From the IMG/VR virus record IMGVR_UViG_2896589216_000002: DNA of 34,924 nucleotides. One strand, given 5' to 3'. Under the pieces are notes generated by a model. It was not told the origin of the DNA. It ran no database searches and worked only from the letters and a program-made list of their open reading frames with translations. This DNA is from a virus. Taxonomy: Duplodnaviria > Heunggongvirae > Uroviricota > Caudoviricetes. The stretch's first letter is position 1, and every line of letters begins with the position of its first letter. Positions 4,125-28,826 of the stretch are shown in pieces. The position numbers and the translations under genes are program-made.

Positions 4125-4476
4125 AGTTTTTCTCGCGATAAATTAAATCAGGAAGAAATTTCCGGAGAGGCGGGCCATTCAATGGCGTTGTATGAGGTTT
4201 TATCAGTGATGACACTGAAATCCATCGCCTGCAGCGATTTCGCGTAAATGCGGTACGCTTTCAGTTTTTCCCGGTCTTCGTCGCTGATTAGCCCCAGCAG
4301 CAGGTCTTCTTCCCATTCCCCTGTCCGGGCACTGACCTGAGCCAGAAGGGCATCACGCTCATCTTCCGCTTTGAGTCTGTAGTCAAAGACAAATTCATCA
4401 TTGCGGTAAAACCAGTAACCCGGCGCGGTAATGCGGCGGTTGGCGGTAATATCAGGAACTTGGTAATGACTCCAAC

Positions 4477-4980
4477 TTACTGATAGTGTTTTATGTTCAG
4501 ATAATGCCCGATGACCTTGTCATGCAGCTCCACCGATTTTGAGAACGACAGTGACTTCCGTCCCAGCCTTGCCAGATGTTGTCTCAGATTCAGATTATGT
4601 CGCTCAATGCGCTGAGTGTAACGCTTGCTGATAACGTGCAGCTTTCCCTTCAGGCGTGATTCATACAGCGGCCAGCCATCCGTCATCCATACCACGACCT
4701 CAAAGGCCGACAGCAGGCTCAGAAGACGCTCCAGTGTGGCCAGAGTGCGTTCACCGAAGACGTGCGCCACAACCGTCCTCCGTATCCTGTCATACGCGTA
4801 AAACAGCCAGCGCTGACGTGATTTAGCACCGACGTAGCCCCACTGTTCGTCCATTTCAGCGCAGACAATCACATCACTGCCCGGTTGTATGCGCGAGGTT
4901 ACCGACTGCGGCCTGAGTTTTTTAAGTGACGTAAAACCGTGTTGAGGCCAACGCCCATAATGCGTGCACTGGCGCGACAT
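4477..4980 (-). CDS. insB: IS1 InsB
   Basis: Canonical IS1 InsB sequence. Confidence 0.9.
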
Positions 4981-5174
4981 CCGACGCCATTCATGGCCAT
5001 ATCAATGATTTTCTGGTGCGTACCGGGCTGAGAGGCGGTGTAAGTGAACTGTAGTTGCCATGTTTTACGGCAATGAGAGCAGAGATAGCGCTGATGTCCG
5101 GCAGTGCTTTTGCCGTTACGCACCACGCCTTCAGTAGCGGAGCAGGAAGGACATCTGATGGAAATGGAAGCCAC
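4899..5174 (-). CDS. insA: IS1 InsA
   Basis: Canonical 91-aa InsA with CxxC zinc finger. Confidence 0.9.
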
Positions 5175-5472
5175 GCAAGCACCTTAAAATCACCATCATA
5201 CACTAAATCAGTAAGTTGGCAGCATTACCCAGGAACTTCAATAACACTGGCGTTACGGGGTTCAATGCCTGTCACATCCTTACCGACCCACACCACGCGA
5301 CCGTCTCCGGTGTAAGTTATTTTAATTGTGTCGCTGGCGAAATTCTTCAGCTCTTCATACCAGTTTTTTCCGTCTTCCGAAAAAAGCCAGGTGACATCAT
5401 ATTGTTTTGTCAGCTGATATTGTTCCACGGTTTTCGGATTGCCCGCAGTAATATTTTTTAAATGCAACATTG

Positions 5473-6858
5473 TTAAACACTCGCCACGTTATACCAGGTG
5501 CCATTAATCAGTTTCTGAAGCGGGCGGTAATACACGCCGTTGACGTTATCCGCTGAGTCACGGCCGGTATCCGATATCGCTATCCCTGACAGCCCGTGTC
5601 CCGAAGGTGCGCGAAATCTCCACGAAACGGTGTTACTGCCGGGGCTGTAATACATTTCATGGCCATACCGTACATCCTGTACCCCCTCTGTTCGATATTT
5701 ATAGCGGGCATCGAAGTTTCCGTAATTTAACGGAATTACCTGTCCGTTTACGGCGAACGTGATGCTGTTATCTGTATTCCTCTGGCTGAAAAAATGCCAG
5801 CCTGAATCATCGCCAAGCTCTGCAACAACAGACCTGGATGGATTACCCCACAAATAAAACGCTGCATTTTTCGTGGAGTTGTTGGCGCTGGATAACGTGA
5901 ATTTTCTGGCAGTTCCGGCCTGAATATTCTTAAAAGCAATAGCCACTCCATTCTGAAAGCGGAATACACGCTGACTATTAGCATAAACATCCAGAATACC
6001 GTCTCCATTCTGTTTAAATCCGGTGTCATTATCACCAAGAACAATTGAATTCCCCCCCAGGGCGTTCTGAACGCCGATACCCAGCGCACCATTGACCTGC
6101 GAACCACCGCCAACAGACACTTTATGCGACATGGATATTTCACCCGTCCGCAAATTAATGGTGAACGGGCGCAGGGGACCAATATCGCCATTTTCCCCCT
6201 GACCTTCACTGGTGGGAATAAGGTGCAGGCACTCTTCCGAACGACGAAAAATCAGGCCAAAAGCTTCGTTGAAAATCCTCAGCGCATTAACACCACGGAT
6301 TTTCAGCTCTCCGGTTATTTTATCGCCTTCCCGATGAACATAGCGTTGATCTGACTGCTCTTTACTGTAAACCTGAAGATTATCCCGTGCCGTCCCTTTA
6401 TTCTGAAGGTCTGACAGATTGTTCTTCTGCCGCAGGAATATCCTTTTCGGATCCTCAAGAAGATTTACCCAGCCCGCACTGTCGGAGCCTTCAGGATCGG
6501 TCAGGTTATCGTCTGTGGTATTCAGCCAGACCGCTGTTGTTGCGACTCCGGCGAGAATGGCTCCTTTTGCATATCCACCAATGGCCCCCGCAAAACCGGC
6601 ATTATACGTGTACAAACCGCCAGCTTGGGCGAACCGTATTGCTGCGGTAATATCGTACATCAGACCGTTAAAATCCTTGCAGTGTGGCGGTATACCTCCC
6701 GCTGAGACCGCTGTCATGGTCACCGGAGGAAAACCTGAATCATACGCAGCATTACCGCTCTCTCTGGTCTGCTGTGTCGCCTTGTCCGGGATACGGTTTT
6801 TATCTCCGGTACTCGCAAAGGGGACCGCCAGCTGGCGGGGTTTATCACTGGCCTTCAT
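5473..6858 (-). CDS. phage tail fiber protein, 461 aa
   Basis: Sits between baseplate genes and tfa; stop directly abuts tfa start. Confidence 0.6.
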
Positions 6859-7261
6859 TACGGGACTCCTTTAAAACTACTGAAACATAAACACCCGGCG
6901 GGGACGGCAGTGCACCCGACGACTGGATAATCGCCAGTTCTGCCAACGAGAGCGCGGACTCAAAGATGTAACTCATCCTCAGCCCACCATTATTCAGAAC
7001 ATAAGCCCGCCGTTTTTTTCCGAACATAAATCTCAGCATCCGGTTAATATCCGGAACGGAACAGTCAGTAATGTTCGACATGGCTTTCATCAGTATCAGC
7101 CGCCGGTATACAGCATCAGACAGGTCAACAGTCCGGGTATCCGATTTTCCGTTGTAAAACGGTGCCTGATTAGACTGGCCCCCTGAATCTCCAGACAACC
7201 AGTATCACTTAAATAAGTGATAGTCTTAATACTAGTTTTTAGACTAGTCATTGGAGTACAG

Positions 7262-7627
7262 ATGATTGATGTCTTAGGGCCGGAGAAACGCAGACGGCGT
7301 ACCACACAGGAAAAGATCGCAATTGTTCAGCAGAGCTTTGAACCGGGGATGACGGTCTCCCTCGTTGCCCGGCAACATGGTGTAGCAGCCAGCCAGTTAT
7401 TTCTCTGGCGTAAGCAATACCAGGAAGGAAGTCTTACTGCTGTGGCCGCCGGAGAACAGGTTGTTCCTGCCTCTGAACTTGCTGCCGCCATGAAGCAGAT
7501 TAAAGAACTCCAGCGCCTGCTCGGCAAGAAAACGATGGAAAATGAACTCCTCAAAGAAGCCGTTGAATATGGACGGGCAAAAAAGTGGATAGCGCACGCG
7601 CCCTTATTGCCCGGGGATGGGGAGTAA
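7262..7627 (+). CDS. insC: IS2 InsC (OrfA)
   Basis: Starts [16 protein letters not shown] protein. Confidence 0.9.
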
Positions 7628-8490
7628 GCTTAGTCAGCCGTTGTCTCCGGGTGTCGCGTGCGCAGTTGCACGTCATTCTCAGACGAACCGATGACTGGAT
7701 GGATGGCCGCCGCAGTCGTCACACTGATGATACGGATGTGCTTCTCCGTATACACCATGTTATCGGAGAGCTGCCCACGTATGGTTATCGTCGGGTATGG
7801 GCGCTGCTTCGCAGACAGGCAGAACTTGATGGTATGCCTGCGATCAATGCCAAACGTGTTTACCGGATCATGCGCCAGAATGCGCTGTTGCTTGAGCGAA
7901 AACCTGCTGTACCGCCATCGAAACGGGCACATACAGGCAGAGTGGCCGTGAAAGAAAGCAATCAGCGATGGTGCTCTGACGGGTTCGAGTTCTGCTGTGA
8001 TAACGGAGAGAGACTGCGTGTCACGTTCGCGCTGGACTGCTGTGATCGTGAGGCACTGCACTGGGCGGTGACTACCGGCGGCTTCAACAGTGAAACAGTA
8101 CAGGACGTCATGCTGGGAGCGGTGGAACGCCGCTTCGGCAACGATCTTCCGTCGTCTCCAGTGGAGTGGCTGACGGATAATGGTTCATGCTACCGGGCTA
8201 ATGAAACACGCCAGTTCGCCCGGATGTTGGGACTTGAACCGAAGAACACGGCGGTGCGGAGTCCGGAGAGTAACGGAATAGCAGAGAGCTTCGTGAAAAC
8301 GATAAAGCGTGACTACATAAGTATCATGCCCAAACCAGACGGGTTAACGGCAGCAAAGAACCTTGCAGAGGCGTTCGAGCATTATAACGAATGGCATCCG
8401 CATAGTGCGCTGGGTTATCGCTCGCCACGGGAATATCTGCGGCAGCGGGCTTGTAATGGGTTAAGTGATAACAGATGTCTGGAAATATAG
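7585..8490 (+). CDS. insD: IS2 InsD (OrfB transposase)
   Basis: 301-aa DDE ORF overlapping insC in -1 frame. Confidence 0.9.
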
Positions 8491-8787
8491 GGGCAAATCC
8501 ACTGATTAAACGGACAGGGATCATCCATTACCGGGGTGTCCATCCTGGACTCGCTGAAGCCCAGGTAATTAAAATCGTCCTTTACCGTCAGCCGGCGACT
8601 GACACCCACAATCTTTCCCCAGACATCAAGACCATACTTTTCTGCGGTATCGATGTTCCAGATAAGACCATAAAAATCACTGATAAAACTGTCGGGGGAA
8701 AGCGCTGCGTTAAAGCTGTTAATGAGGGCATTGAGTCGGGGGCTGGCAGCATACTGCGCAAGCACAGTGGCAGCCACATTCTGCACG

Positions 8788-10025
8788 TTATGCCTCCTGG
8801 AGTTTCACACTGATATCCGACACATCCAGAACCGGAATCTCATCTATCCCGAAAGTGACAGCCGTTGTCCATGACGAACCGTCACGGCTCACAGTAAGGC
8901 CCAGAATATCAATATGTTCCGGATCGGTTTTGTAAATGCCGGCATAGTAGCGCCCGGCAGAGACAACAGAGGCAACCCTTGCCCGCAGACCACCATCTGT
9001 ACCATTAAATGCGTCCAGCACGGATTGCTGTACCTGTCGGGTAATATCTGAAGGCAGGTAGTCACTTTTTTTCAGCGTCACACTGACATGCAGACTGACG
9101 GGTTTGAGTGTCTGCCAGCTGATTACGTATTCAGGATACGGCGGATCGTACTCCTTATCTGCAACAGTGAACGTTGTGTTGCCATTCATATCAATACCCG
9201 GCGGAGCCTTACGCCAGATGGCCGCCGCGATATCTGCCGGGCTGCCGCCGTACACGCCAACATAAAGCGAACCGGGTGTTAATGGATACTGACTGACTCC
9301 GGCTTTTTGTTCTGTTTTTTTCGGATTATGGGGGACGTAAACATCCACCACGTTTTCTACCGTGGAGAGTATTTCACCCCGGATGGCTTCCAGAATATTC
9401 CGGGCATTACGGGCAACTGAATTACGTCGGCGGTTTTCAAAGTCCGCACGGGTTTCCTCATCGCTGCCCGGCACACCGGCACGGGCGTTAGTGACACCTG
9501 ACCAGCCAGGTATTGCCTTATAAATTTTATTCAGCGTCCCCACAGGACAGCCGACGGGGCCGGTGGACAAATTCAGAAATACCGCATCAACCTGCCCTGA
9601 TGCGCCGATAGTGACGTCTGACTGACATACTTATAACCGGCCTCATCCTGCCCCATACTGCCCGCCGGGATCAGCGTGCCAACCAGCCCGGTACAGGTCG
9701 CTGTTACTGTCGTACCTGTGGCCCCACGGCGCTCCAGGAAATAAATCCTGCCTATTGCATCCTGAAAGCGACCACTGGAAAAGTCAGGGTTGATCTGGTT
9801 AACGATATACAGCAACTGATCGTTTTTATCCGCAATAATGGCGCTTTCGCTGGATGCAAGTTGTCCCTGCGGACTGCTCAGACTGGTACTCATGGCCCCG
9901 CCCAGCGCCGCCGAAAAATCAGCAAGCCTGCCGCTCAGAATATCCGCTTCATCCGGCACATTCAGCCCGCTATCCGAAATCTGTACAGCGGGCACTGCGG
10001 TAGAAAAAGATTTATTTTCACTCAT
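8788..10025 (-). pseudogene. baseplate J-like protein split by an apparent 1-nt frameshift near 9615-9635
   Basis: 150-aa N-terminal ORF (9573-10025) and 260-aa ORF (8788-9570); the second frame reads ...SDVTIGASGQVDAVFLN... straight after the first stops. Confidence 0.6.
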
Positions 10026-10378
10026 AGCAGTACCGTAAAAATGTCATTATTGGTATCTGTAATACGCAGCACACCTGTTACTGTCCGGGTTTGATCAGCT
10101 GTGACCTGGCAGACAGCGGCGCTCACGGTCGGCAGTTTAAGTGCTTCCTGTTGCAGAGTGGCATTCACCAGTTGTGTGCCGGGCCAGTGTCCGAGGATGC
10201 GTGGCCAGTAAGGTATGCCAGCCGTTGAGTCGTACCAGCACTCCCCCAGAAAAGTACTGCACGCACACGCCACATCCTGAGCTACCGCATGGGGATTATC
10301 AGTAATGGCAAGATTTCCGGTATCATCAAGCAGGATATCCCATGTCCCGGTGTCAAGAAGAAGTGATCGTGACTGCAT
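10022..10378 (-). CDS. baseplate wedge protein (gpW / gp25-like), 118 aa
   Basis: Size and position between V-like and J-like genes. Confidence 0.5.
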   Translation of the reverse strand: MQSRSLLLDTGTWDILLDDTGNLAITDNPHAVAQDVACACSTFLGECWYDSTAGIPYWPRILGHWPGTQLVNATLQQEALKLPTVSAAVCQVTADQTRTVTGVLRITDTNNDIFTVLL

Positions 10379-12927: not shown

Positions 12928-14944
12928 CCTGTTACCCCGCTGGAATAAACCGACACAAGCGCCGAATTCGTGATACGCCGACGTGCGTCATCGGTAATAC
13001 CCTTCACATTGTCCGACGTTGTGGTGACATTCAGTGTCCCGATATGCGTGGTTTCCGTTACGGTGGACTGCGATACAGGCGCAGGATGGAGCGACCGTAT
13101 GGCCATTGCCGCACCCGGATAAGGCAGGTTCGCCAGCACCCGCGGAATATAGTTGCGGGTCTCCTCCGGAGCAGCAGCCAGTCCCTTACGCTGAACATTT
13201 CCCTCTCCACAGTTATATGCCGCCAGAGCCTTAGCCAGATCGCCATGAAAAAAACGTATCAGGCCACCAAGTTTTCTCGCGGCGGCATCAGCGGCTTTTT
13301 CGGGATCAAAGGCATCGTTCCCCCTCAGACCAAATTCACTGGCCGTCTTCGGCATGAACTGAAACAGTCCCATCGCACCAGCAGGTGAGACGGCAAACTG
13401 ATTACCACGGGATTCGGTGATCGCAACGCTGCGCAGCAGTCCGGGCGGCAGGTTATATTTTTCCTCCAGTTGAGACAGTTTCGGTTGCAGCCAGCCTAAC
13501 AGGGCTTCCCCGGTCTTCGTCGGTCGCTGGCGGTTTTGCATGGCATTACCGAGTTTTTCCTGCGTCGCACGCATACCCTGTAGCCAGGATTCACCGAAGG
13601 CTGCTTCCCTCCCGGTTGCCTGAGAAGCCTGAGTATCCAGCATGCCCTGCTGCCATACTGTGGGTGATTGTGCCCGGGTGATGTTGCCAGGCTTTTCTCC
13701 GGCATCCAGTTTTGTCTGATACGTCTCCATCTCTTTCTTATTGAAAAAGAAAGTCCCGTCTGAAGCCCAGAAAAAACCATGTGAATCCAGCCAGTCCTTA
13801 TTTTCCCTGCCAACAATGGATGTCAGTAATCCGTCAACAACCGGGTAAAGCGCCGTTATCGCAAAAAGAAGGCCTCCGGGGCCACTGAGGGCTTTTGTCA
13901 GCCCCCGCACCCATGACGCCACTTTCAGCCCGATCAGCGTAATAATGACATTCTGCCAGCCCCCCAGTTCTCCGGCAGCCTTATTCGCTAGGGAGGCCAC
14001 TGACTCAACGTCATTCAGAAATGTGGTGATAAACCTGTTCACTTCCTCCGGATGTTGCTGCATCCAGTCACCGAGTGTCTCCAGCCAGTGGCTGAGCTTC
14101 AGCGCGTACGGCATCAACGCGGTGCTAATCGTCATCCCGATGCCGGACCAGGTCTGATCGAGCTCAACAAGCTCTTTTCGTAGCTTACGGGCCAGCGCTG
14201 TACGCCCCGGCGTAACCTGCGAACGGGAAGTAAATTCGTCCACATCTTTCAGCGCATGACCGGAGCCAAGAAACTGCTGTCCGGCATAACTGAAGCCCAG
14301 CGCGTTGCCGTAGGCAGTTTGTTCGGACTTTGTCAGTCGCGGAAAAATAACCGCCAGCTTGCGCATGATGGCTTCAGTGCTGTCAGTATTTAAATCAACA
14401 CTAATGCCCGCCCTGGCTGCAACCTGAAACAAATCCTGTAACACAGGATCAAAGGACCTTCCGGCTCTGAAGGCCGCTTTTGCATTTGCAAGCCGGGAAA
14501 ATGCCCCAGACATTTCCCCTTCATCAACATTATTTGCCCGCGCAGCCCGTAACCATCCGTCCAGATTTCTGGCCTTCATGCCAAAAGCATCGGATTCCAC
14601 GGACAGACGGTTCAGATCACGGGCAAAACCTGTTACCAGGTTCTTCAGCCCCCCAGCGTCAGACTGACACCCGCAAGAGCCAGAATCTCGCTACGGATTC
14701 CTGAAAAAAAACGGGACGCCCGTTTCCCGGCATCTTCCATTCGACGGGCCGTTTTATCAGCATCTTTTCCGGTTTTTTCCAGTGATTCACTGGTTTTCTT
14801 CTGTCCCTGACTGAATGTGTCAGCGACACCTTCCATCACCGTCGTGAGCCGGTTAAGGGCAGCATGTACTGCCTGTTCCCCGGCAGTAAAGTCCCTGTCA
14901 TCAATCCCGAGGGACAGAACAAGCTCATCAAGTACCTGCGCCAT
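12924..14944 (-). CDS. tail tape measure protein with C-terminal lytic transglycosylase (SLT) domain; N-terminal 99 aa and main 558 aa separated by a frameshift in a C6 tract
   Basis: SLT motif (ITESRGNQFAVSPAGAMGLFQFMP...AYNCGEGNV); adding one G to the run at 14649-14654 fuses the frames as ...SLTLGGLKNLVTGFARDLNRLSVESDAF... Confidence 0.7.
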
Positions 14945-15555: not shown

Positions 15556-15893
15556 CAGTTAAAAACCTCCGGAGTAATGGTTTCCCACTCAATAACCGCC
15601 TGCCCTGGCTGCAACGTACGAGCTGCATCAGGCAGCGCTTTCCATTGTTTGAGTACGCCATTCACGCAGGTATATTTACGGCCAATCGCCGGAAGCAGGA
15701 CGACAGCGTTACAACGGAATACAGCCCGACTGGCCCGGATGTGGTTGACCAGGTATCAAAAATATCCCGGCTGGGGGAATCCGGCATGATATGAAACGTC
15801 TGGATAATGTTGCTGTACACAAATCCCGCGGACAGTTTGGTAATGCTGCCAACTTACTGATTTAGTGTATGATGGTGATTTTAAGGTGCTTGC

Positions 15894-16169
15894 GTGGCTT
15901 CCATTTCCATCAGATGTCCTTCCTGCTCCGCTACTGAAGGCGTGGTGCGTAACGGCAAAAGCACTGCCGGACATCAGCGCTATCTCTGCTCTCATTGCCG
16001 TAAAACATGGCAACTACAGTTCACTTACACCGCCTCTCAGCCCGGTACGCACCAGAAAATCATTGATATGGCCATGAATGGCGTCGGATGTCGCGCCAGT
16101 GCACGCATTATGGGCGTTGACCTCAACACGGTTTTCCGTCACTTAAAAAACTCAGGCCGCAGTCGGTAA
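15894..16169 (+). CDS. insA: IS1 InsA
   Basis: 91-aa InsA. Confidence 0.9.
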
Positions 16170-16195
16170 CCTCGCGCATACAACCGGGCAGTGAT

Positions 16196-16591
16196 GTGAT
16201 TGTCTGCGCTGAAATGGACGAACAGTGGGGCTACGTCGGTGCTAAATCACGTCAGCGCTGGCTGTTTTACGCGTATGACAGGATACGGAGGACGGTTGTG
16301 GCGCACGTCTTCGGTGAACGCACTCTGGCCACACTGGAGCGTCTTCTGAGCCTGCTGTCGGCCTTTGAGGTCGTGGTATGGATGACGGATGGCTGGCCGC
16401 TGTATGAATCACGCCTGAAGGGAAAGCTGCACGTTATCAGCAAGCGTTACACTCAGCGCATTGAGCGACATAATCTGAATCTGAGACAACATCTGGCAAG
16501 GCTGGGACGGAAGTCACTGTCGTTCTCAAAATCGGTGGAGCTGCATGACAAGGTCATCGGGCATTATCTGAACATAAAACACTATCAGTAA
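16196..16591 (+). CDS. insB: IS1 InsB
   Basis: InsB frame. Confidence 0.9.
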
Positions 16592-17955
16592 GTTGGAGTC
16601 ATTACCGACAGTTTACCGTCAATACCGCGGGCAGTTTCCGCCAGTACCAGTGGATCGGTGCCATAAACGTTATCTGTTGCAAATCCCTGAAGTCGTACGC
16701 CGGAGGGATACAGATTATTCACTGTCAGCGTGATAATGGCATCCGCCGCAGTGATGGTGTTGTTGTTACCCGACATTTACTGGACCTCCGTGGATGCAAT
16801 AACAAGTTTCTGGATACTACCGCCGTCACAGTACCAGAGCGTACAGGACGGACTGCTACGGGTTGCCCGCAAAGAGGGAAGCATATCGCCGATATACAGG
16901 TAATAGCCGGTGGCAAACAACGTTGAAGAAACATCTGCCTCCACAACATTGTTAATCTGTTTCTTCTGCGCCTCCGTCAGTGTCACCCCTTCACGGATCC
17001 CTCCCAGCGTTTGTACTGCTGGATAACGTCACTCATTGACGCTGCAACCAGCGCCCGCCCTTCATTGTTGTAGGGGACCGTCTGGTTTGACTTGAATAAT
17101 GCGATCACCGCCCCTGCAAACTGGCATTCAGCCAGATTTGCCCGCAGAAACTGTCCAGCCATTTAAAATCACCGGTAATAGTGCCATCCGCCCAGTAATC
17201 TTCCACCACACTGTTTTCCGCATATTTTCCGTAGAAATTGTAACCTGCGGCGATCAGCGCATCATAATCGCTGCCACTGGTAACATCAGCGGCCAGCCCC
17301 TCATACTCGCGGAACTTGAATGATACACGCCCCTCTGGTCGGATAAAATCAAGGCACGCTGCATACCCCAGTACCGCTGCAGCCCGGTTACCATCAGTCG
17401 CGAAAACAGGTACAACAGAGCTGTAGTTATTGACAGCAATTATCTGGTAAGCGATGTGTTCAGTACTGCCTTTTACTCTGGCGTTGCCGCTGGTTGTCCA
17501 TGCCACATAAAAGTAACGCTTGCCCTGCCCGTTTGCCCATGCAGAAAACGCCAGGTGTTGCTCGTCAGTGACCTCAGATACCGTGGAAAAACCCGCCCAT
17601 TGCTGGGAAGCGGCCTTAATGGCTGCCATTGTGTCAGGGACATCAGATACAGGCGCGCCCCGGGATATCACCGCACCGGTGTTACTGGTCATCTTCAGGA
17701 GTTCTGCTGCCGATCCACTGCCGAACGTTATCGTGGTACTCCCGGGTTTCGCCCCGGCGACAGTAATGACAAAAGCATTCTGTGTGGTATCGAATACCAC
17801 TGTAGCCACTGCTGCGGTCAGCGCTGTCTGTAGTGCCGTTGCAGCAGCGGCGAAGCTGGCGACACCGTTAAAATTCACTTCAATGCTGACGCTTTTCCCG
17901 TTAATACTCAGCATCAGCGTAAGCGTGCAGCAAGAACCGTATTGACGGGGATGTG

Positions 17956-19493
17956 TTATTCAGTCGGCAGTGCTACGCGCCAGGGGAGCAGTTCGCCGAC
18001 CCGGTTTATCGGCCAGTCGGCTATGACGTCAAGTACATAGCGGAGGTAGCTTTCTGGCTCCACTCCGTTCAGTTTGCACGTCCCGATCAGGCTGTACAGC
18101 AGCGCTCCCCGCTCTCCTCCATGATCCGAACCGAAGAACAGGTAGTTTTTGCGGCCCAGACTGACCATCCGCAACGCATTTTCAGCGATGTTATTGTCCG
18201 CCTCAGCCCAGCCATCATCTGCATAGTACGTCAGCGCCGGCCACTGGTTCAGGGCGTATGCGAACGCTTTCGCCAGTTCTGAGTGTCGCGACAGGGTTTT
18301 CATCTTTTCACGCAGCCAGCTTTCCAGGGATTTCATCAGCGGTTTCGTTTTCAACTGACGTTCGGCAAGGCGCTGCTCCGCCGTCATTCCCCTTATCTCT
18401 GCCTCGATGGCGTACAGTTCGCCGATCCGTTTCAGCGCTTCCTCCGTCAGGGCTGACGGGGTGCGAACGTGCACATCGTGGATTTTACGGCGGGCGTGAG
18501 CCCAACAGGCGGCTTCCGTTATCCGGCCATCCCGGTACAGCTCGTTGAACCCGGCGTATGCATCCGCCTGCAGTACACCACTGAACCACGCAAGATGGGT
18601 CTGCGGATGGATGCCTTTTCTGTCCGGGCTGTAAGCGAACCACACCGCCGGCGCCAGCGTTGACCCGGCGTTACGGTCGTCACGAACGTAGGTCCATAAC
18701 CGCCCGGTCTTCGTTTTCTTATTGCCTGGCAACAGCACCGGGACAGGCGTGTCATCGCATGGAGCTTACCGTCAGTCAGCACATAGTCCTGAAGCGCTTC
18801 TTCCAGCGGTGACAGTAGCCGGCAGCATGCATCCACCCAGCCCGACAGCAGTGAACGACTCAGCTCCACGCCCTGGCGGCCGTACATTTCAGACTGGCGG
18901 TACAGCGGGGTGTGCTCTGCATACTTTGAGATCAGCACGCGGGCCAGCAGCCCCGGTCCTGCGATACCCCGCTCGATGGGCCGTGAAGGCGCGGGGGCCT
19001 GCACGATGGCATTGCACTGAGTACAGGCATGCTTTTCACGTACAGTCCGGATAACCCGGAAGACGCTGCGCATCAACTCCAGCTGTTCGGCGGCATCCTC
19101 ACCCGGATAGCTCAGTGAGCCTCCACATTCCGGGCAGCATGACGCTGCCGGCAGCAGCCGTTTTTCATCGCGGGGGAGTGATTCGGGGAACGGTTTGCGG
19201 GTGCGGGTTTGACGCAGCGGGCGCTGCACGGCCGGGTCGTCAACCCGACCGGTAAGGGTATCACTTTCTTTCTGAAGTGCCTTCAGGTCAGCTTCCATCT
19301 GTGCGATACGACGGGAGACTTTTTCGGAGCGGCTGCCGAAGTTCATCCGGCGCAGCTTATCCAGCTGTGCCTGCAGATGGTCTATTTCGCGTTCACGCTC
19401 GTTCAGCTTTTCCAGCAGGGCACGGTTCAGCGCCTCCTGTTCGGCAAGGAGACGTTTCAGTGCATTGATATCGTCAGGAAGTGAGCTGCTCAT
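17956..19493 (-). pseudogene. tnpC: IS66 tnpC with 1-nt deletion (copy 2)
   Basis: gtcatcgcatgg near 18755-18760 versus gtcatcagcatgg in copy 3; ORF splits into 324 + 260 aa. Confidence 0.85.
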
Positions 19494-19541
19494 ACCGGGT
19501 ATATTACCAGGCTCATTCAGCGTCGACCAGGATAAAGAGGC

Positions 19542-19889
19542 TTACAACATAGTCAGGGACGTAAGCAGTCTTTTAGGCTGCCGCCAGTCGATACCTTCAA
19601 GGAGCATCGCCAGCTGTGCCGGTGTGAGGAACACTTTGCCATCCCGGGCTGACGGCCAGGCGAAGCGGCCGCGCTCCAGCCGTTTGGTCAGCAGACACAG
19701 TCCATCGCCGGTAGACCAGAGGAGCTTTACCTGACTGCCATTACGCCCACGGAAGATAAAAACGTGACCTGACATCGGATCGTCTTTCAGCGTCGTCTGC
19801 ACCTTTGCCGCCAGGCCGTTGAAGCCATTTCTCATATCGGTGATACCGGCAACCAGCCAAATTTTGGTCCCGGAAGGTAACGGGATCAT
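19542..19889 (-). CDS. tnpB: IS66 TnpB (copy 2)
   Basis: Identical to copies 1 and 3. Confidence 0.85.
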   Translation of the reverse strand: MIPLPSGTKIWLVAGITDMRNGFNGLAAKVQTTLKDDPMSGHVFIFRGRNGSQVKLLWSTGDGLCLLTKRLERGRFAWPSARDGKVFLTPAQLAMLLEGIDWRQPKRLLTSLTML

Positions 19890-20287
19890 CGCTTCAGTTC
19901 CTGTATCAGCAGAGTCAGGAGCTTTTCGCTGACATTGCCATTAAAGCGGAGCGTCCCGTGCCGGAACGTTACCTCACAGCTGATACTGAGGGTTTCCGGA
20001 TCCTCTGCGAGCGATTCTGGCTGTTCGGCAGCTGCATCGAGAGTCACAGGAAGTAGCTGGGGGCTCTCTGAAGAAGGTAATAGCAGCTTTCCCTCGCGCC
20101 ATTGTTGTCGCCATTTGAACAACAGATTGGCGTTAATGCCATTTTCAAGAGCAAGTTTTGAGATGGATATCCCGGGTTCACAGGAGGCAGCAACGAGCTG
20201 CTGTTTAAATTCGGGAGGATAATTAGGGCAGCCTTTTCGCCTGCCGGGATTCACATTTTTCTGCATATCTGACACTTTGGTTCCCAC
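19886..20287 (-). CDS. tnpA: IS66 TnpA (copy 2)
   Basis: 133-aa full-length. Confidence 0.85.
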   Translation of the reverse strand: MGTKVSDMQKNVNPGRRKGCPNYPPEFKQQLVAASCEPGISISKLALENGINANLLFKWRQQWREGKLLLPSSESPQLLPVTLDAAAEQPESLAEDPETLSISCEVTFRHGTLRFNGNVSEKLLTLLIQELKR

Positions 20288-20687
20288 TACTTATTTGGTG
20301 GACACCACTTTGTCTAATTCGTCAGATTCTGACCAGACGGTTCAGGCTGTACGCTTACGCATCAGCGTGCCGGAAAGTTTTTGTAGCTGTTCAACAGTCG
20401 CGCCCTTAAACGAACCGCTACGTAACCAGGCCGCCGATGGGGCAGGACTGAAACGGGAAAACAACAATTGCCCCGGCGTCCTGGTGGCATTTTTGAAGCC
20501 CTGGAAATAAAGCTGAGCGCGTGCGTACTCATCGGATAATGCACCAAAATACGCGGCCACATCATCCGGAGAGGAAAACGGAACCACAGTGCCGACCGGA
20601 AGTAACGGATTACTGGTCAACAGCAGGCCGTTAAGATCGACGGCATTACCCGCCACAGCCAGCACACCGGGATTTATCTGTACATCT

Positions 20688-22617: not shown

Positions 22618-23685
<1,068 letters not shown>

Positions 23686-23694
23686 ATGGCGACA

Positions 23695-24202: not shown

Positions 24203-24277
<75 letters not shown>

Positions 24278-24280
24278 ATA

Positions 24281-24357
<77 letters not shown>

Positions 24358-24359
24358 CT

Positions 24360-24436
24360 GGCCCACCACCGAGGACTCGAACCTCGCACCGTCAACTTAG
24401 AAGGTTGATGCTCTATCCGGATGAGCTAGTGGTGGT
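24360..24436 (-). tRNA. tRNA-Arg (anticodon UCU), phage argN/argO-like
   Basis: Anticodon loop CTTCTAA, T-loop TTCGAGT, CCA; unusual C1:G72 acceptor pair. Confidence 0.8.
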
Positions 24437-24437
24437 T

Positions 24438-24514
24438 GGTGGCCCTTGCTGGACTTGAACCAGCGACCTGGCGATTATGAGTCGCTCGCTCTGACCAACT
24501 GAGCTAAAGGGCCG
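24438..24514 (-). tRNA. tRNA with CAU anticodon, ileX/ileZ-like (probable tRNA-Ile2; Met not excluded)
   Basis: GGCCCTT acceptor, anticodon loop CTCATAA, T-arm GCTGGTTCAAGTCCAGC resembling E. coli ileX. Confidence 0.7.
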
Positions 24515-24593: not shown

Positions 24594-25894
<1,301 letters not shown>

Positions 25895-26232
25895 CTGATA
25901 AAAGCGCCCTGTACTGGTTAGCAATAGCAAATTTACTACCAGCTGCTCTGATTTCAAGAAAGCTGTACACCTCCCTTATGCCTATATTTTTAACCGGAAC
26001 ACCACCAAAGTATTCACTTATGATTTTCAACCTCTGGTTGTGTCTTTTCATGGTGTTTGTGCTTAATTGTCTACGCTCTATTTCATTTCTGAAATTTAAT
26101 ATCAGCTCGCAGAATAATGTTACGCTATTACCTTTTATTCTATCCAGTAAGCTTATATGTTGCGTGGATAATAATTCCATATTTGCCGCAATAGCCTCAT
26201 TAACTGCAATTCTTTTGTCTCTTCCGATTCCA
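25895..26232 (-). pseudogene. AT-rich integrase-like fragment (N-terminal/SAM-like region), cut by IS1 upstream and IS911 downstream
   Basis: Frame ...RDKRIAVNEAIAANMELLSTQHISLLDRIK...LSTNTMKRHNQRLKIISEYFGGVPVKNIGIREVYSFLE...; low-GC codons. Confidence 0.35.
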
Positions 26233-26359
26233 GGTGATGACTCCAACTTACTGATAGTGTTTTATGTTCAGATAATGCCCGATGACCTTGTCATGCAGCT
26301 CCACCGATTTTGAGAACGACAGTGACTTCCGTCCCAGCCTTGCCAGATGTTGTCTCAGA
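26233..26359 (-). mobile_element. IS1 fragment (127 bp, IRR end plus insB 3' end), truncated by IS66 copy 3
   Basis: Identical to the 4462-4588 end of IS1 copy 1 up to ...tgtctcaga. Confidence 0.9.
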
Positions 26360-26396
26360 GTAAGCGTGCAGCAAGAACCGTATTGACGGGGATGTG

Positions 26397-27935
26397 TTAT
26401 TCAGTCGGCAGTGCTACGCGCCAGGGGAGCAGTTCGCCGACCCGGTTTATCGGCCAGTCGGCTATGACGTCAAGTACATAGCGGAGGTAGCTTTCTGGCT
26501 CCACTCCGTTCAGTTTGCACGTCCCGATCAGGCTGTACAGCAGCGCTCCCCGCTCTCCTCCATGATCCGAACCGAAGAACAGGTAGTTTTTGCGGCCCAG
26601 ACTGACCATCCGCAACGCATTTTCAGCGATGTTATTGTCCGCCTCAGCCCAGCCATCATCTGCATAGTACGTCAGCGCCGGCCACTGGTTCAGGGCGTAT
26701 GCGAACGCTTTCGCCAGTTCTGAGTGTCGCGACAGGGTTTTCATCTTTTCACGCAGCCAGCTTTCCAGGGATTTCAGCAGCGGTTTCGTTTTCAACTGAC
26801 GTTCGGCAAGGCGCTGCTCCGCCGTCATTCCCCTTATCTCTGCCTCGATGGCGTACAGTTCGCCGATCCGTTTCAGCGCTTCCTCCGTCAGGGCTGACGG
26901 GGTGCGAACGTGCACATCGTGGATTTTACGGCGGGCGTGAGCCCAACAGGCGGCTTCCGTTATCCGGCCATCCCGGTACAGCTCGTTGAACCCGGCGTAT
27001 GCATCCGCCTGCAGTACACCACTGAACCCCGCAAGATGGGTCTGCGGATGGATGCCTTTTCTGTCCGGGCTGTAAGCGAACCACACCGCCGGCGCCAGCG
27101 TTGACCCGGCGTTACGGTCGTCACGAACGTAGGTCCATAACCGCCCGGTCTTCGTTTTCTTATTGCCTGGCAACAGCACCGGGACAGGCGTGTCATCAGC
27201 ATGGAGCTTACCGTCAGTCAGCACATAGTCCTGAAGCGCTTCTTCCAGCGGTGACAGTAGCCGGCAGCATGCATCCACCCAGCCCGACAGCAGTGAACGA
27301 CTCAGCTCCACGCCCTGGCGGCCGTACATTTCAGACTGGCGGTACAGCGGGGTGTGCTCTGCATACTTTGAGATCAGCACGCGGGCCAGCAGCCCCGGTC
27401 CTGCGATACCCCGCTCGATGGGCCGTGAAGGCGCGGGGGCCTGCACGATGGCATCGCACTGAGTACAGGCATGCTTTTCACGTACAGTCCGGATAACCCG
27501 GAAGACGCTGCGCATCAACTCCAGCTGTTCGGCGGCATCCTCACCCGGATAGCTCAGTGAGCCTCCACATTCCGGGCAGCATGACGCTGCCGGCAGCAGC
27601 CGTTTTTCATCGCGGGGGAGTGATTCGGGGAACGGTTTGCGGGTGCGGGTTTGACGCAGCGGGCGCTGCACGGCCGGGTCGTCAACCCGACCGGTAAGGG
27701 TATCACTTTCTTTCTGAAGTGCCTTCAGGTCAGCTTCCATCTGTGCGATACGACGGGAGACTTTTTCGGAGCGGCTGCCGAAGTTCATCCGGCGCAGCTT
27801 ATCCAGCTGTGCCTGCAGATGGTCTATTTCGCGTTCACGCTCGTTCAGCTTTTCCAGCAGGGCACGGTTCAGCGCCTCCTGTTCGGCAAGGAGACGTTTC
27901 AGTGCATTGATATCGTCAGGAAGTGAGCTGCTCAT
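26397..27935 (-). CDS. tnpC: IS66 transposase TnpC (copy 3, intact)
   Basis: 512 aa, identical to copy 1. Confidence 0.9.
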
Positions 27936-27983
27936 ACCGGGTATATTACCAGGCTCATTCAGCGTCGACCAGGATAAAGAGGC

Positions 27984-28331
27984 TTACAACATAGTCAGGG
28001 ACGTAAGCAGTCTTTTAGGCTGCCGCCAGTCGATACCTTCAAGGAGCATCGCCAGCTGTGCCGGTGTGAGGAACACTTTGCCATCCCGGGCTGACGGCCA
28101 GGCGAAGCGGCCGCGCTCCAGCCGTTTGGTCAGCAGACACAGTCCATCGCCGGTAGACCAGAGGAGCTTTACCTGACTGCCATTACGCCCACGGAAGATA
28201 AAAACGTGACCTGACATCGGATCGTCTTTCAGCGTCGTCTGCACCTTTGCCGCCAGGCCGTTGAAGCCATTTCTCATATCGGTGATACCGGCAACCAGCC
28301 AAATTTTGGTCCCGGAAGGTAACGGGATCAT
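27984..28331 (-). CDS. tnpB: IS66 TnpB (copy 3)
   Basis: Identical. Confidence 0.85.
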   Translation of the reverse strand: MIPLPSGTKIWLVAGITDMRNGFNGLAAKVQTTLKDDPMSGHVFIFRGRNGSQVKLLWSTGDGLCLLTKRLERGRFAWPSARDGKVFLTPAQLAMLLEGIDWRQPKRLLTSLTML

Positions 28332-28729
28332 CGCTTCAGTTCCTGTATCAGCAGAGTCAGGAGCTTTTCGCTGACATTGCCATTAAAGCGGAGCGTCCCG
28401 TGCCGGAACGTTACCTCACAGCTGATACTGAGGGTTTCCGGATCCTCTGCGAGCGATTCTGGCTGTTCGGCAGCTGCATCGAGAGTCACAGGAAGTAGCT
28501 GGGGGCTCTCTGAAGAAGGTAATAGCAGCTTTCCCTCGCGCCATTGTTGTCGCCATTTGAACAACAGATTGGCGTTAATGCCATTTTCAAGAGCAAGTTT
28601 TGAGATGGATATCCCGGGTTCACAGGAGGCAGCAACGAGCTGCTGTTTAAATTCGGGAGGATAATTAGGGCAGCCTTTTCGCCTGCCGGGATTCACATTT
28701 TTCTGCATATCTGACACTTTGGTTCCCAC
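28328..28729 (-). CDS. tnpA: IS66 TnpA (copy 3)
   Basis: Identical. Confidence 0.85.
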   Translation of the reverse strand: MGTKVSDMQKNVNPGRRKGCPNYPPEFKQQLVAASCEPGISISKLALENGINANLLFKWRQQWREGKLLLPSSESPQLLPVTLDAAAEQPESLAEDPETLSISCEVTFRHGTLRFNGNVSEKLLTLLIQELKR

Positions 28730-28826
28730 TACTTATTTGGTGGACACCACTTTGTCTAATTCGTCAGATTCTGACCAGACGGTTCAGGCTGTACGCTTAC
28801 GTTTTTATAATCCGGCCATGACATTT

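Follow-up and report, generated by a model that had tools for sequence, protein, structure and literature searches.

A baseplate J gene split by the inherited loss of one GTCA repeat unit in a decayed Shigella prophage

The baseplate J gene in the window (the whole stretch of DNA analysed here, 34,924 nt of IMG/VR record IMGVR_UViG_2896589216_000002) is split by a frameshift which is the loss of one unit from a three-unit GTCA repeat, and this lesion is a mutation fixed in a lineage and not an assembly error. We consider it very probable that this is an ordinary pseudogene, a baseplate J gene inactivated by the inherited loss of a GTCA unit in a decayed prophage, and as such it is of an already-known kind with nothing new in type. 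A preliminary description made from the DNA alone had reported a J gene in two pieces, with a 150-aa 5′ ORF ending just as a second frame opens, and we found both ORFs (10025..9573 and open from 9630). The split gene and its immediate neighbours are arranged as follows.

10022..10378, minus strand: intact sheath initiator (gp25-like) of 118 aa, whose identical product in related loci carries PF10934.
10025..9573, minus strand: 5′ fragment of the J/gp47 pseudogene, with an ATG start, 150 aa and the stop TGA at 9575..9573.
9619..9626, minus strand: deletion site, where (GTCA)2 is left of an original (GTCA)3, placed by alignments to the E. coli loci L001, L002 and L003.
9621..8788, minus strand: 3′ part of the J/gp47 pseudogene, native residues 137–413 (SDVTIGASG...KLQEA) and stop.
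8415..8786, minus strand: 5′ fragment of the DUF2612/Phage_Wedge1 gene, downstream of J and truncated by IS2.
7180..8501, plus strand: IS2 in the DUF2612/Wedge1 gene, with boundaries good to about 14 nt.
6845..7198, minus strand: 3′ fragment of the DUF2612/Wedge1 gene beyond IS2, with PF11041 found on products of 81–117 aa.

The stop of the sheath-initiator gene overlaps the J start. The 5′ ORF is composed of native residues 1–136 followed by out-of-frame residues 137–150 (TSLSAHQGRLMRYF), and its terminus is ...GYKYVSQTSLSAHQGRLMRYF*. The 3′ frame is open from 9630, directly past a TAA at 9633..9631, and runs as far as the stop codon 8790..8788. This frame, which reads VCQSDVTIGASGQVDAVFLN... 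(also VCQSDVTIGASGQVDAVFLNLSTGP...), overlaps the 5′ frame by 58 nt. This 3′ part is without a convincing start codon, and gene callers choose three different starts giving products of 260, 251 or 228 aa. The 150-aa product is listed in databases as a Shigella dysenteriae 'hypothetical protein' or as a 'homolog of phage Mu gp47'.

Comparison with intact relatives locates the lesion exactly. A megablast search with positions 8700–10100 of the window against 5,426 complete E. coli genomes returned seven full-length matches with 99.0–99.4% identity, in which the matching segment is 1405 nt long compared with 1401 nt in the window, and each is annotated with a single 1242-nt (413 aa) 'baseplate J/gp47 family protein' gene between the sheath-initiator and DUF2612 genes. 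The nine intact relatives, from chromosomes of enteroinvasive E. coli and from prophage contigs in IMG/VR, are 99% identical and have one 413-aa ORF. The preliminary description had suggested alignment with intact J-family proteins as a means of finding the indel, and in such alignments the sole indel within the J gene is a 4-nt gap at the GTCA repeat: the two paralogous copies in E. coli CFSAN029787 and the FDAARGOS_943 copy read TAT GTCA GTCA GTCA GAC where the window reads TAT GTCA GTCA GAC (over the break, GTCAGTCAGTCA in the intact relatives and GTCAGTCA in the window). The intact repeat occupies codons 134–137, and which of the units was deleted is ambiguous inside the repeat. The reading frame is thereby moved by −4, the same as −1, and meets a stop 14 codons on. 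When the 4 nt were restored in silico we obtained a 413-aa protein with two differences (A125G and T233P) from WP_046880343.1, and the pair of ORFs is therefore not a chance juxtaposition.

It should be noted that the local sequence gtcagtcagacgtcac, which is the minus strand from 9626 to 9611, contains no homopolymer, and to this extent the earlier statement that there is no run at the site was right. It overlooked that 9626..9619 is the two-unit remnant of a tetranucleotide tandem repeat, and the mutation is thus still a slippage-type event and not an arbitrary indel. The repeat is recognisable solely by comparison with intact alleles, and Tandem Repeats Finder did not report the GTCA tract in the window, where two units are too short.

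The assignment to the J/gp47 family is clear once the frame is repaired. The 413-aa protein matches Pfam Baseplate_J (PF04865) over residues 90–234 with 42.4 bits (E 6.5e-11; the curated cut-off is 21.1 bits), with no Baseplate_J match for the 5′ fragment and a score of 17.2 bits, under the cut-off, for the 3′ fragment, and the break at residue 136/137 falls inside this domain. The surroundings are those of a baseplate module, with PF10934 upstream and PF11041 Phage_Wedge1 (DUF2612) downstream, and with tail fibre and Caudo_TAP genes beyond the latter. As the ORF is split after residue 136 by the 4-nt deletion, the window copy is a pseudogene of the J/gp47 family and not a functional member, and both fragments have presumably lost their function. 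The two ORFs (150 aa, and 228–260 aa according to the caller) stand in databases as 'hypothetical protein' or 'homolog of phage Mu gp47', and their annotation ought to be joined into that of a single baseplate J pseudogene marked as frameshifted.

Homologues elsewhere are in one piece. A tblastn search of 50,697 phage records with the protein found 983 matching, and in 536 of these a single place accounts for at least 80% of the protein (the best record was Pantoea phage PA-1 at 57%), and together with the single genes in E. coli this indicates that J homologues are single ORFs. The possibility raised earlier that homologues might show two natural ORFs here is not borne out by either the E. 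coli relatives or these 536 records, and a natural two-ORF arrangement is ruled out by the one-piece records and by the Pfam domain spanning the break. We note that the J homologue of Klebsiella phage KP12 (OM835954.1, 6357–7558) matches in two pieces which are annotated as two hypothetical proteins; either a separate frameshift in that phage or an error of sequencing may lie behind this.

Among solved structures, those of Pseudomonas phage E217 gp44 (8env/8eon) and Pa193 gp45 (9b45) come closest, with E values of 8.8e-25 for PDB 8env_J and 1.7e-24 for 9b45_j, and the alignment runs over residues 16–344 unbroken at the frameshift site, with SDVTI conserved. The protein is homologous to E217 gp44 across the core, although the relationship is distant with only the core aligned, and the window copy differs in being truncated after residue 136. 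In E217, two gp44 conformers and one gp45 form each triplex, and six triplexes in the baseplate nut hold the tail tip, carry the fibres and drive contraction (PMC10329688). Whether J would form such a 2:1 triplex with its Wedge1-type partner is moot in the window, since both genes are disrupted there. In identical loci, the genes next to J likewise encode proteins that hit families of the E217/Pam3 type (E217_GP41 hub, Pam3_gp18, Sheath_initiator, Phage_Wedge1 and E217_gp31 sheath), but E217 is a lytic Pbunavirus whereas the window is a lambdoid-type temperate prophage.

Much closer to the window are the prophages of enteroinvasive E. coli CFSAN029787 (NZ_CP011416.1; WP_046880343.1 and WP_046881262.1), which have 99% nucleotide identity to it. 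This chromosome has two paralogous copies of the tail module (L003 and L001), one adjoining sitABCD and one adjoining ipaH, and the copy adjoining sitABCD was the intact sister prophage used for comparison. The window and the E. coli sister prophages share the gene order spike, sheath initiator, J, DUF2612/Wedge1, tail fibre and tail-fibre assembly, but the sister copies, with (GTCA)3, keep J in one ORF of 1242 nt, and in the window, with (GTCA)2, the gene falls into two pieces in different frames.

The J gene lies in a prophage remnant saturated with insertion sequences, and the prophage is defunct and cannot make virions or tails. The IS2 (1331 bp, with a target duplication of 5 bp, as judged from a 14-nt alignment overlap) truncates the Wedge1 gene, so the partner wedge protein of J has been inactivated too. 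Further insertions relevant here are listed below.

4462–5229: a further copy of IS1.
15839–16606: IS1 in the tube/sheath region.
17914–20359 (17921–20358 when set against the CFSAN029787 copy): middle copy of an IS66-family element, interrupting the sheath (DUF3383/E217_gp31) gene.

The IS2 insertion occurs in all related S. dysenteriae loci, and the IS1 and IS66-family insertions, too, are shared by the other S. dysenteriae loci. Compared with CFSAN029787 (L003 17989–27384), about 9.4 kb with the head, portal, head-morphogenesis, terminase and some lysis genes is missing at 22963–23686. As the prophage is unable to make virions or tails, nothing selects for an intact J. Genomes of S. dysenteriae are reported to have very many pseudogenes and frameshifts and are known for a heavy IS load (PMC4445032), and the window, with its multiple copies of IS1, IS2 and IS66-family elements, deletions and frameshifts, resembles this genome decay and has nothing distinctive about it.

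Several smaller features of the remnant were also seen. The IS66-family element is present in three copies (1–2349, 17914–20359 and 26355–28801) which are 99.8–99.96% identical, and the middle copy has a 1-nt deletion at 18756, away from any homopolymer, which splits its own tnpC into ORFs of 324 aa and 260 aa. A partial IS copy is found at the 22963–23686 junction, with full copies at 24668–25895 and 32984–34211. Four tRNA genes lie on the minus strand at 24203–24513 (Gly-tcc, Thr-tgt, Arg-tct and a CAT-anticodon tRNA), and the annotation of the E. coli sister prophage gives Val, Thr, Arg and Ile for the corresponding genes, with the first one differing in called identity.

The course of events which would best account for these observations begins with a temperate myovirus that integrated in an ancestor of the Shigella dysenteriae/boydii lineage, carrying a normal 413-aa baseplate wedge gene of the J/gp47 family, homologous to phage E217 gp44. 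One GTCA unit would then have been lost, with slipped-strand mispairing of the replicating DNA as the most plausible cause, shifting the frame after residue 136 and bringing in a stop 14 codons later. Slipped-strand mispairing in replication has such an exact one-unit loss from a short tandem repeat as its signature, and the repeat context points to this mechanism here, although a three-unit tetranucleotide repeat is only a weak hotspot. Descendants would have inherited the deletion and later gained substitutions, with no selection against it as IS insertions, the head/terminase deletion and other frameshifts were dismantling the prophage.

The distribution of alleles is in agreement with inheritance. 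Besides the window, 15 independent related loci have the lesion (10 NCBI S. dysenteriae assemblies and 5 IMG/VR contigs), and all of them, like the window, have (GTCA)2; (GTCA)3 was found in 10 related loci, namely 3 from E. coli (L001–L003) and 7 IMG/VR contigs (9 of the 10 span the whole gene). The IMG/VR contigs came from a gapped-pattern scan allowing 1–5 units, which found 12 contigs, 7 with three units and 5 with two, and none of the 26 sequences surveyed had 1, 4 or 5 units. A gapped-pattern scan of genome contigs with one genome per species gave no matches, because this collection is evidently without a representative carrying the prophage. Among the loci fetched none is identical to the window; those nearest to it are CP045784.1, with 3 mismatches in 6.4 kb, and CP026807.1, with 2 mismatches in its initial 4.7 kb.

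The (GTCA)2 alleles form two sub-haplotypes in the table of variable sites, with T300 and C547 common to both, and the simplest reading of this pattern would be one old deletion with later divergence. We infer a single origin for the deletion from these few shared SNPs, though an identical deletion could recur. Nonsynonymous and synonymous changes, counted as a test for relaxed selection, number 5:3 in the (GTCA)2 group and 11:9 in the (GTCA)3 group; these ratios are alike, and the changes are too few to bear on selection. The lesion is a stable marker common to S. dysenteriae and some S. boydii genomes, and it has little importance beyond annotation and lineage marking. In one of the (GTCA)3 contigs, L017 (IMGVR_UViG_2850796239_000011), the J gene is otherwise intact and has a Q-to-stop change at codon 411, three codons before the normal end.

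It is extremely unlikely that 4 nt of a true (GTCA)3 were lost by the assembler, even though the window has several 1-nt homopolymer indels which differ between the assemblies of near-identical strains and the assembly may contain errors. The preliminary description had favoured a real mutation over a read error, and the wider data agree, since the exact truncated protein is present on 150 contigs named Shigella dysenteriae (221 index blocks, covering NCBI and Logan assemblies of sequencing runs) and two units are found in all ten of the independent NCBI S. dysenteriae assemblies examined as well as in the five IMG/VR contigs of the lineage. The same shifted tail is also carried by diverged variants: P0005 (S. 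dysenteriae, 29 contigs) has 150 aa with the shifted tail kept together with S83F and A125, and P0011 (S. boydii ATCC 9905, 5 contigs) has 150 aa, A125 and an A-to-V change within the shifted tail. Furthermore, a 4-nt loss is not the usual homopolymer type of error. The J lesion was also said to be more trustworthy than the sheath and tape-measure frameshifts, and this too held up, as those runs vary between assemblies and the J tract never does. Of the ten S. dysenteriae assemblies, five have C7 and five have C6 in the tape-measure run at 14648 (C6 in the window and C7 in E. coli), an intergenic G-run (15141; G6 to G5 in the window) has 6, 5 or 4 residues among them, and the sheath C-runs (17002 and 17110) have 4 and 5 in most of the ten but 3 and 4 in the window, whereas the GTCA tract is invariant in the same assemblies. 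The varying homopolymer sites are probably read errors or hypermutable runs, and the J lesion provides a control within the window, with independent assemblies separating inherited frameshifts from assembly-variable homopolymer indels. A G3-to-G2 frameshift in the tail-tube gene (15736), in a very short homopolymer, is absent from the E. coli copies and also looks real, because it is fixed in all ten S. dysenteriae assemblies. Six homopolymer runs, at 14648, 15141, 17002, 17110, 21851 and 22169, differ by one base from those of the E. coli sister prophage, and five of the six differences are under-calls; the annotation of the sit-linked CFSAN029787 copy itself marks its tape-measure gene as frameshifted, at the C-run corresponding to 14648 (C6).

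Accepting that the deletion is inherited, the gene might still be expressed if programmed or fortuitous frameshifting restored a full-length J, or if reinitiation at a TTG yielded two cooperating fragments. The 5′ ORF ends TAT TTC TGA where the 3′ frame has TTT CTG, and a −1 re-pairing of the P-site tRNA-Phe from UUC to UUU appears sterically possible on this reading of the codons, with the TTG lying 2 nt past the 5′ ORF stop. We nevertheless regard such a rescue as highly unlikely: there is no canonical X XXY YYZ heptamer within the 5′ ORF and no Shine-Dalgarno sequence before the TTG; the gene callers disagree on the start; the intact homologues are single ORFs, so the split arrangement is derived and not conserved; and the break divides the Baseplate_J domain. 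A rescued J would also have nothing to assemble into, with the partner wedge, tube, sheath, head and terminase genes all destroyed. There is only a minute chance that the split gene is partly alive, with a rare −1 P-site slip at TAT TTC TGA or TTG reinitiation giving some J, as these sequence motifs might allow, in which case the GTCA tract would work as a rough switch turning a tail-like particle on and off; given the other lesions in the tail module, it is very unlikely that residual J would matter. Tetranucleotide-repeat contingency loci are known in Haemophilus and Neisseria, and a change in the number of units of a tetranucleotide repeat is the class of lesion such loci use, but the proposal that the GTCA tract toggles the J gene at high frequency in this manner has next to no likelihood. 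The tract has only two or three units, the gene encodes a structural phage protein and its prophage is dead, and the tract length is fixed by lineage, with two units in 16 of 16 S. dysenteriae-type sequences and three in 10 of 10 others.
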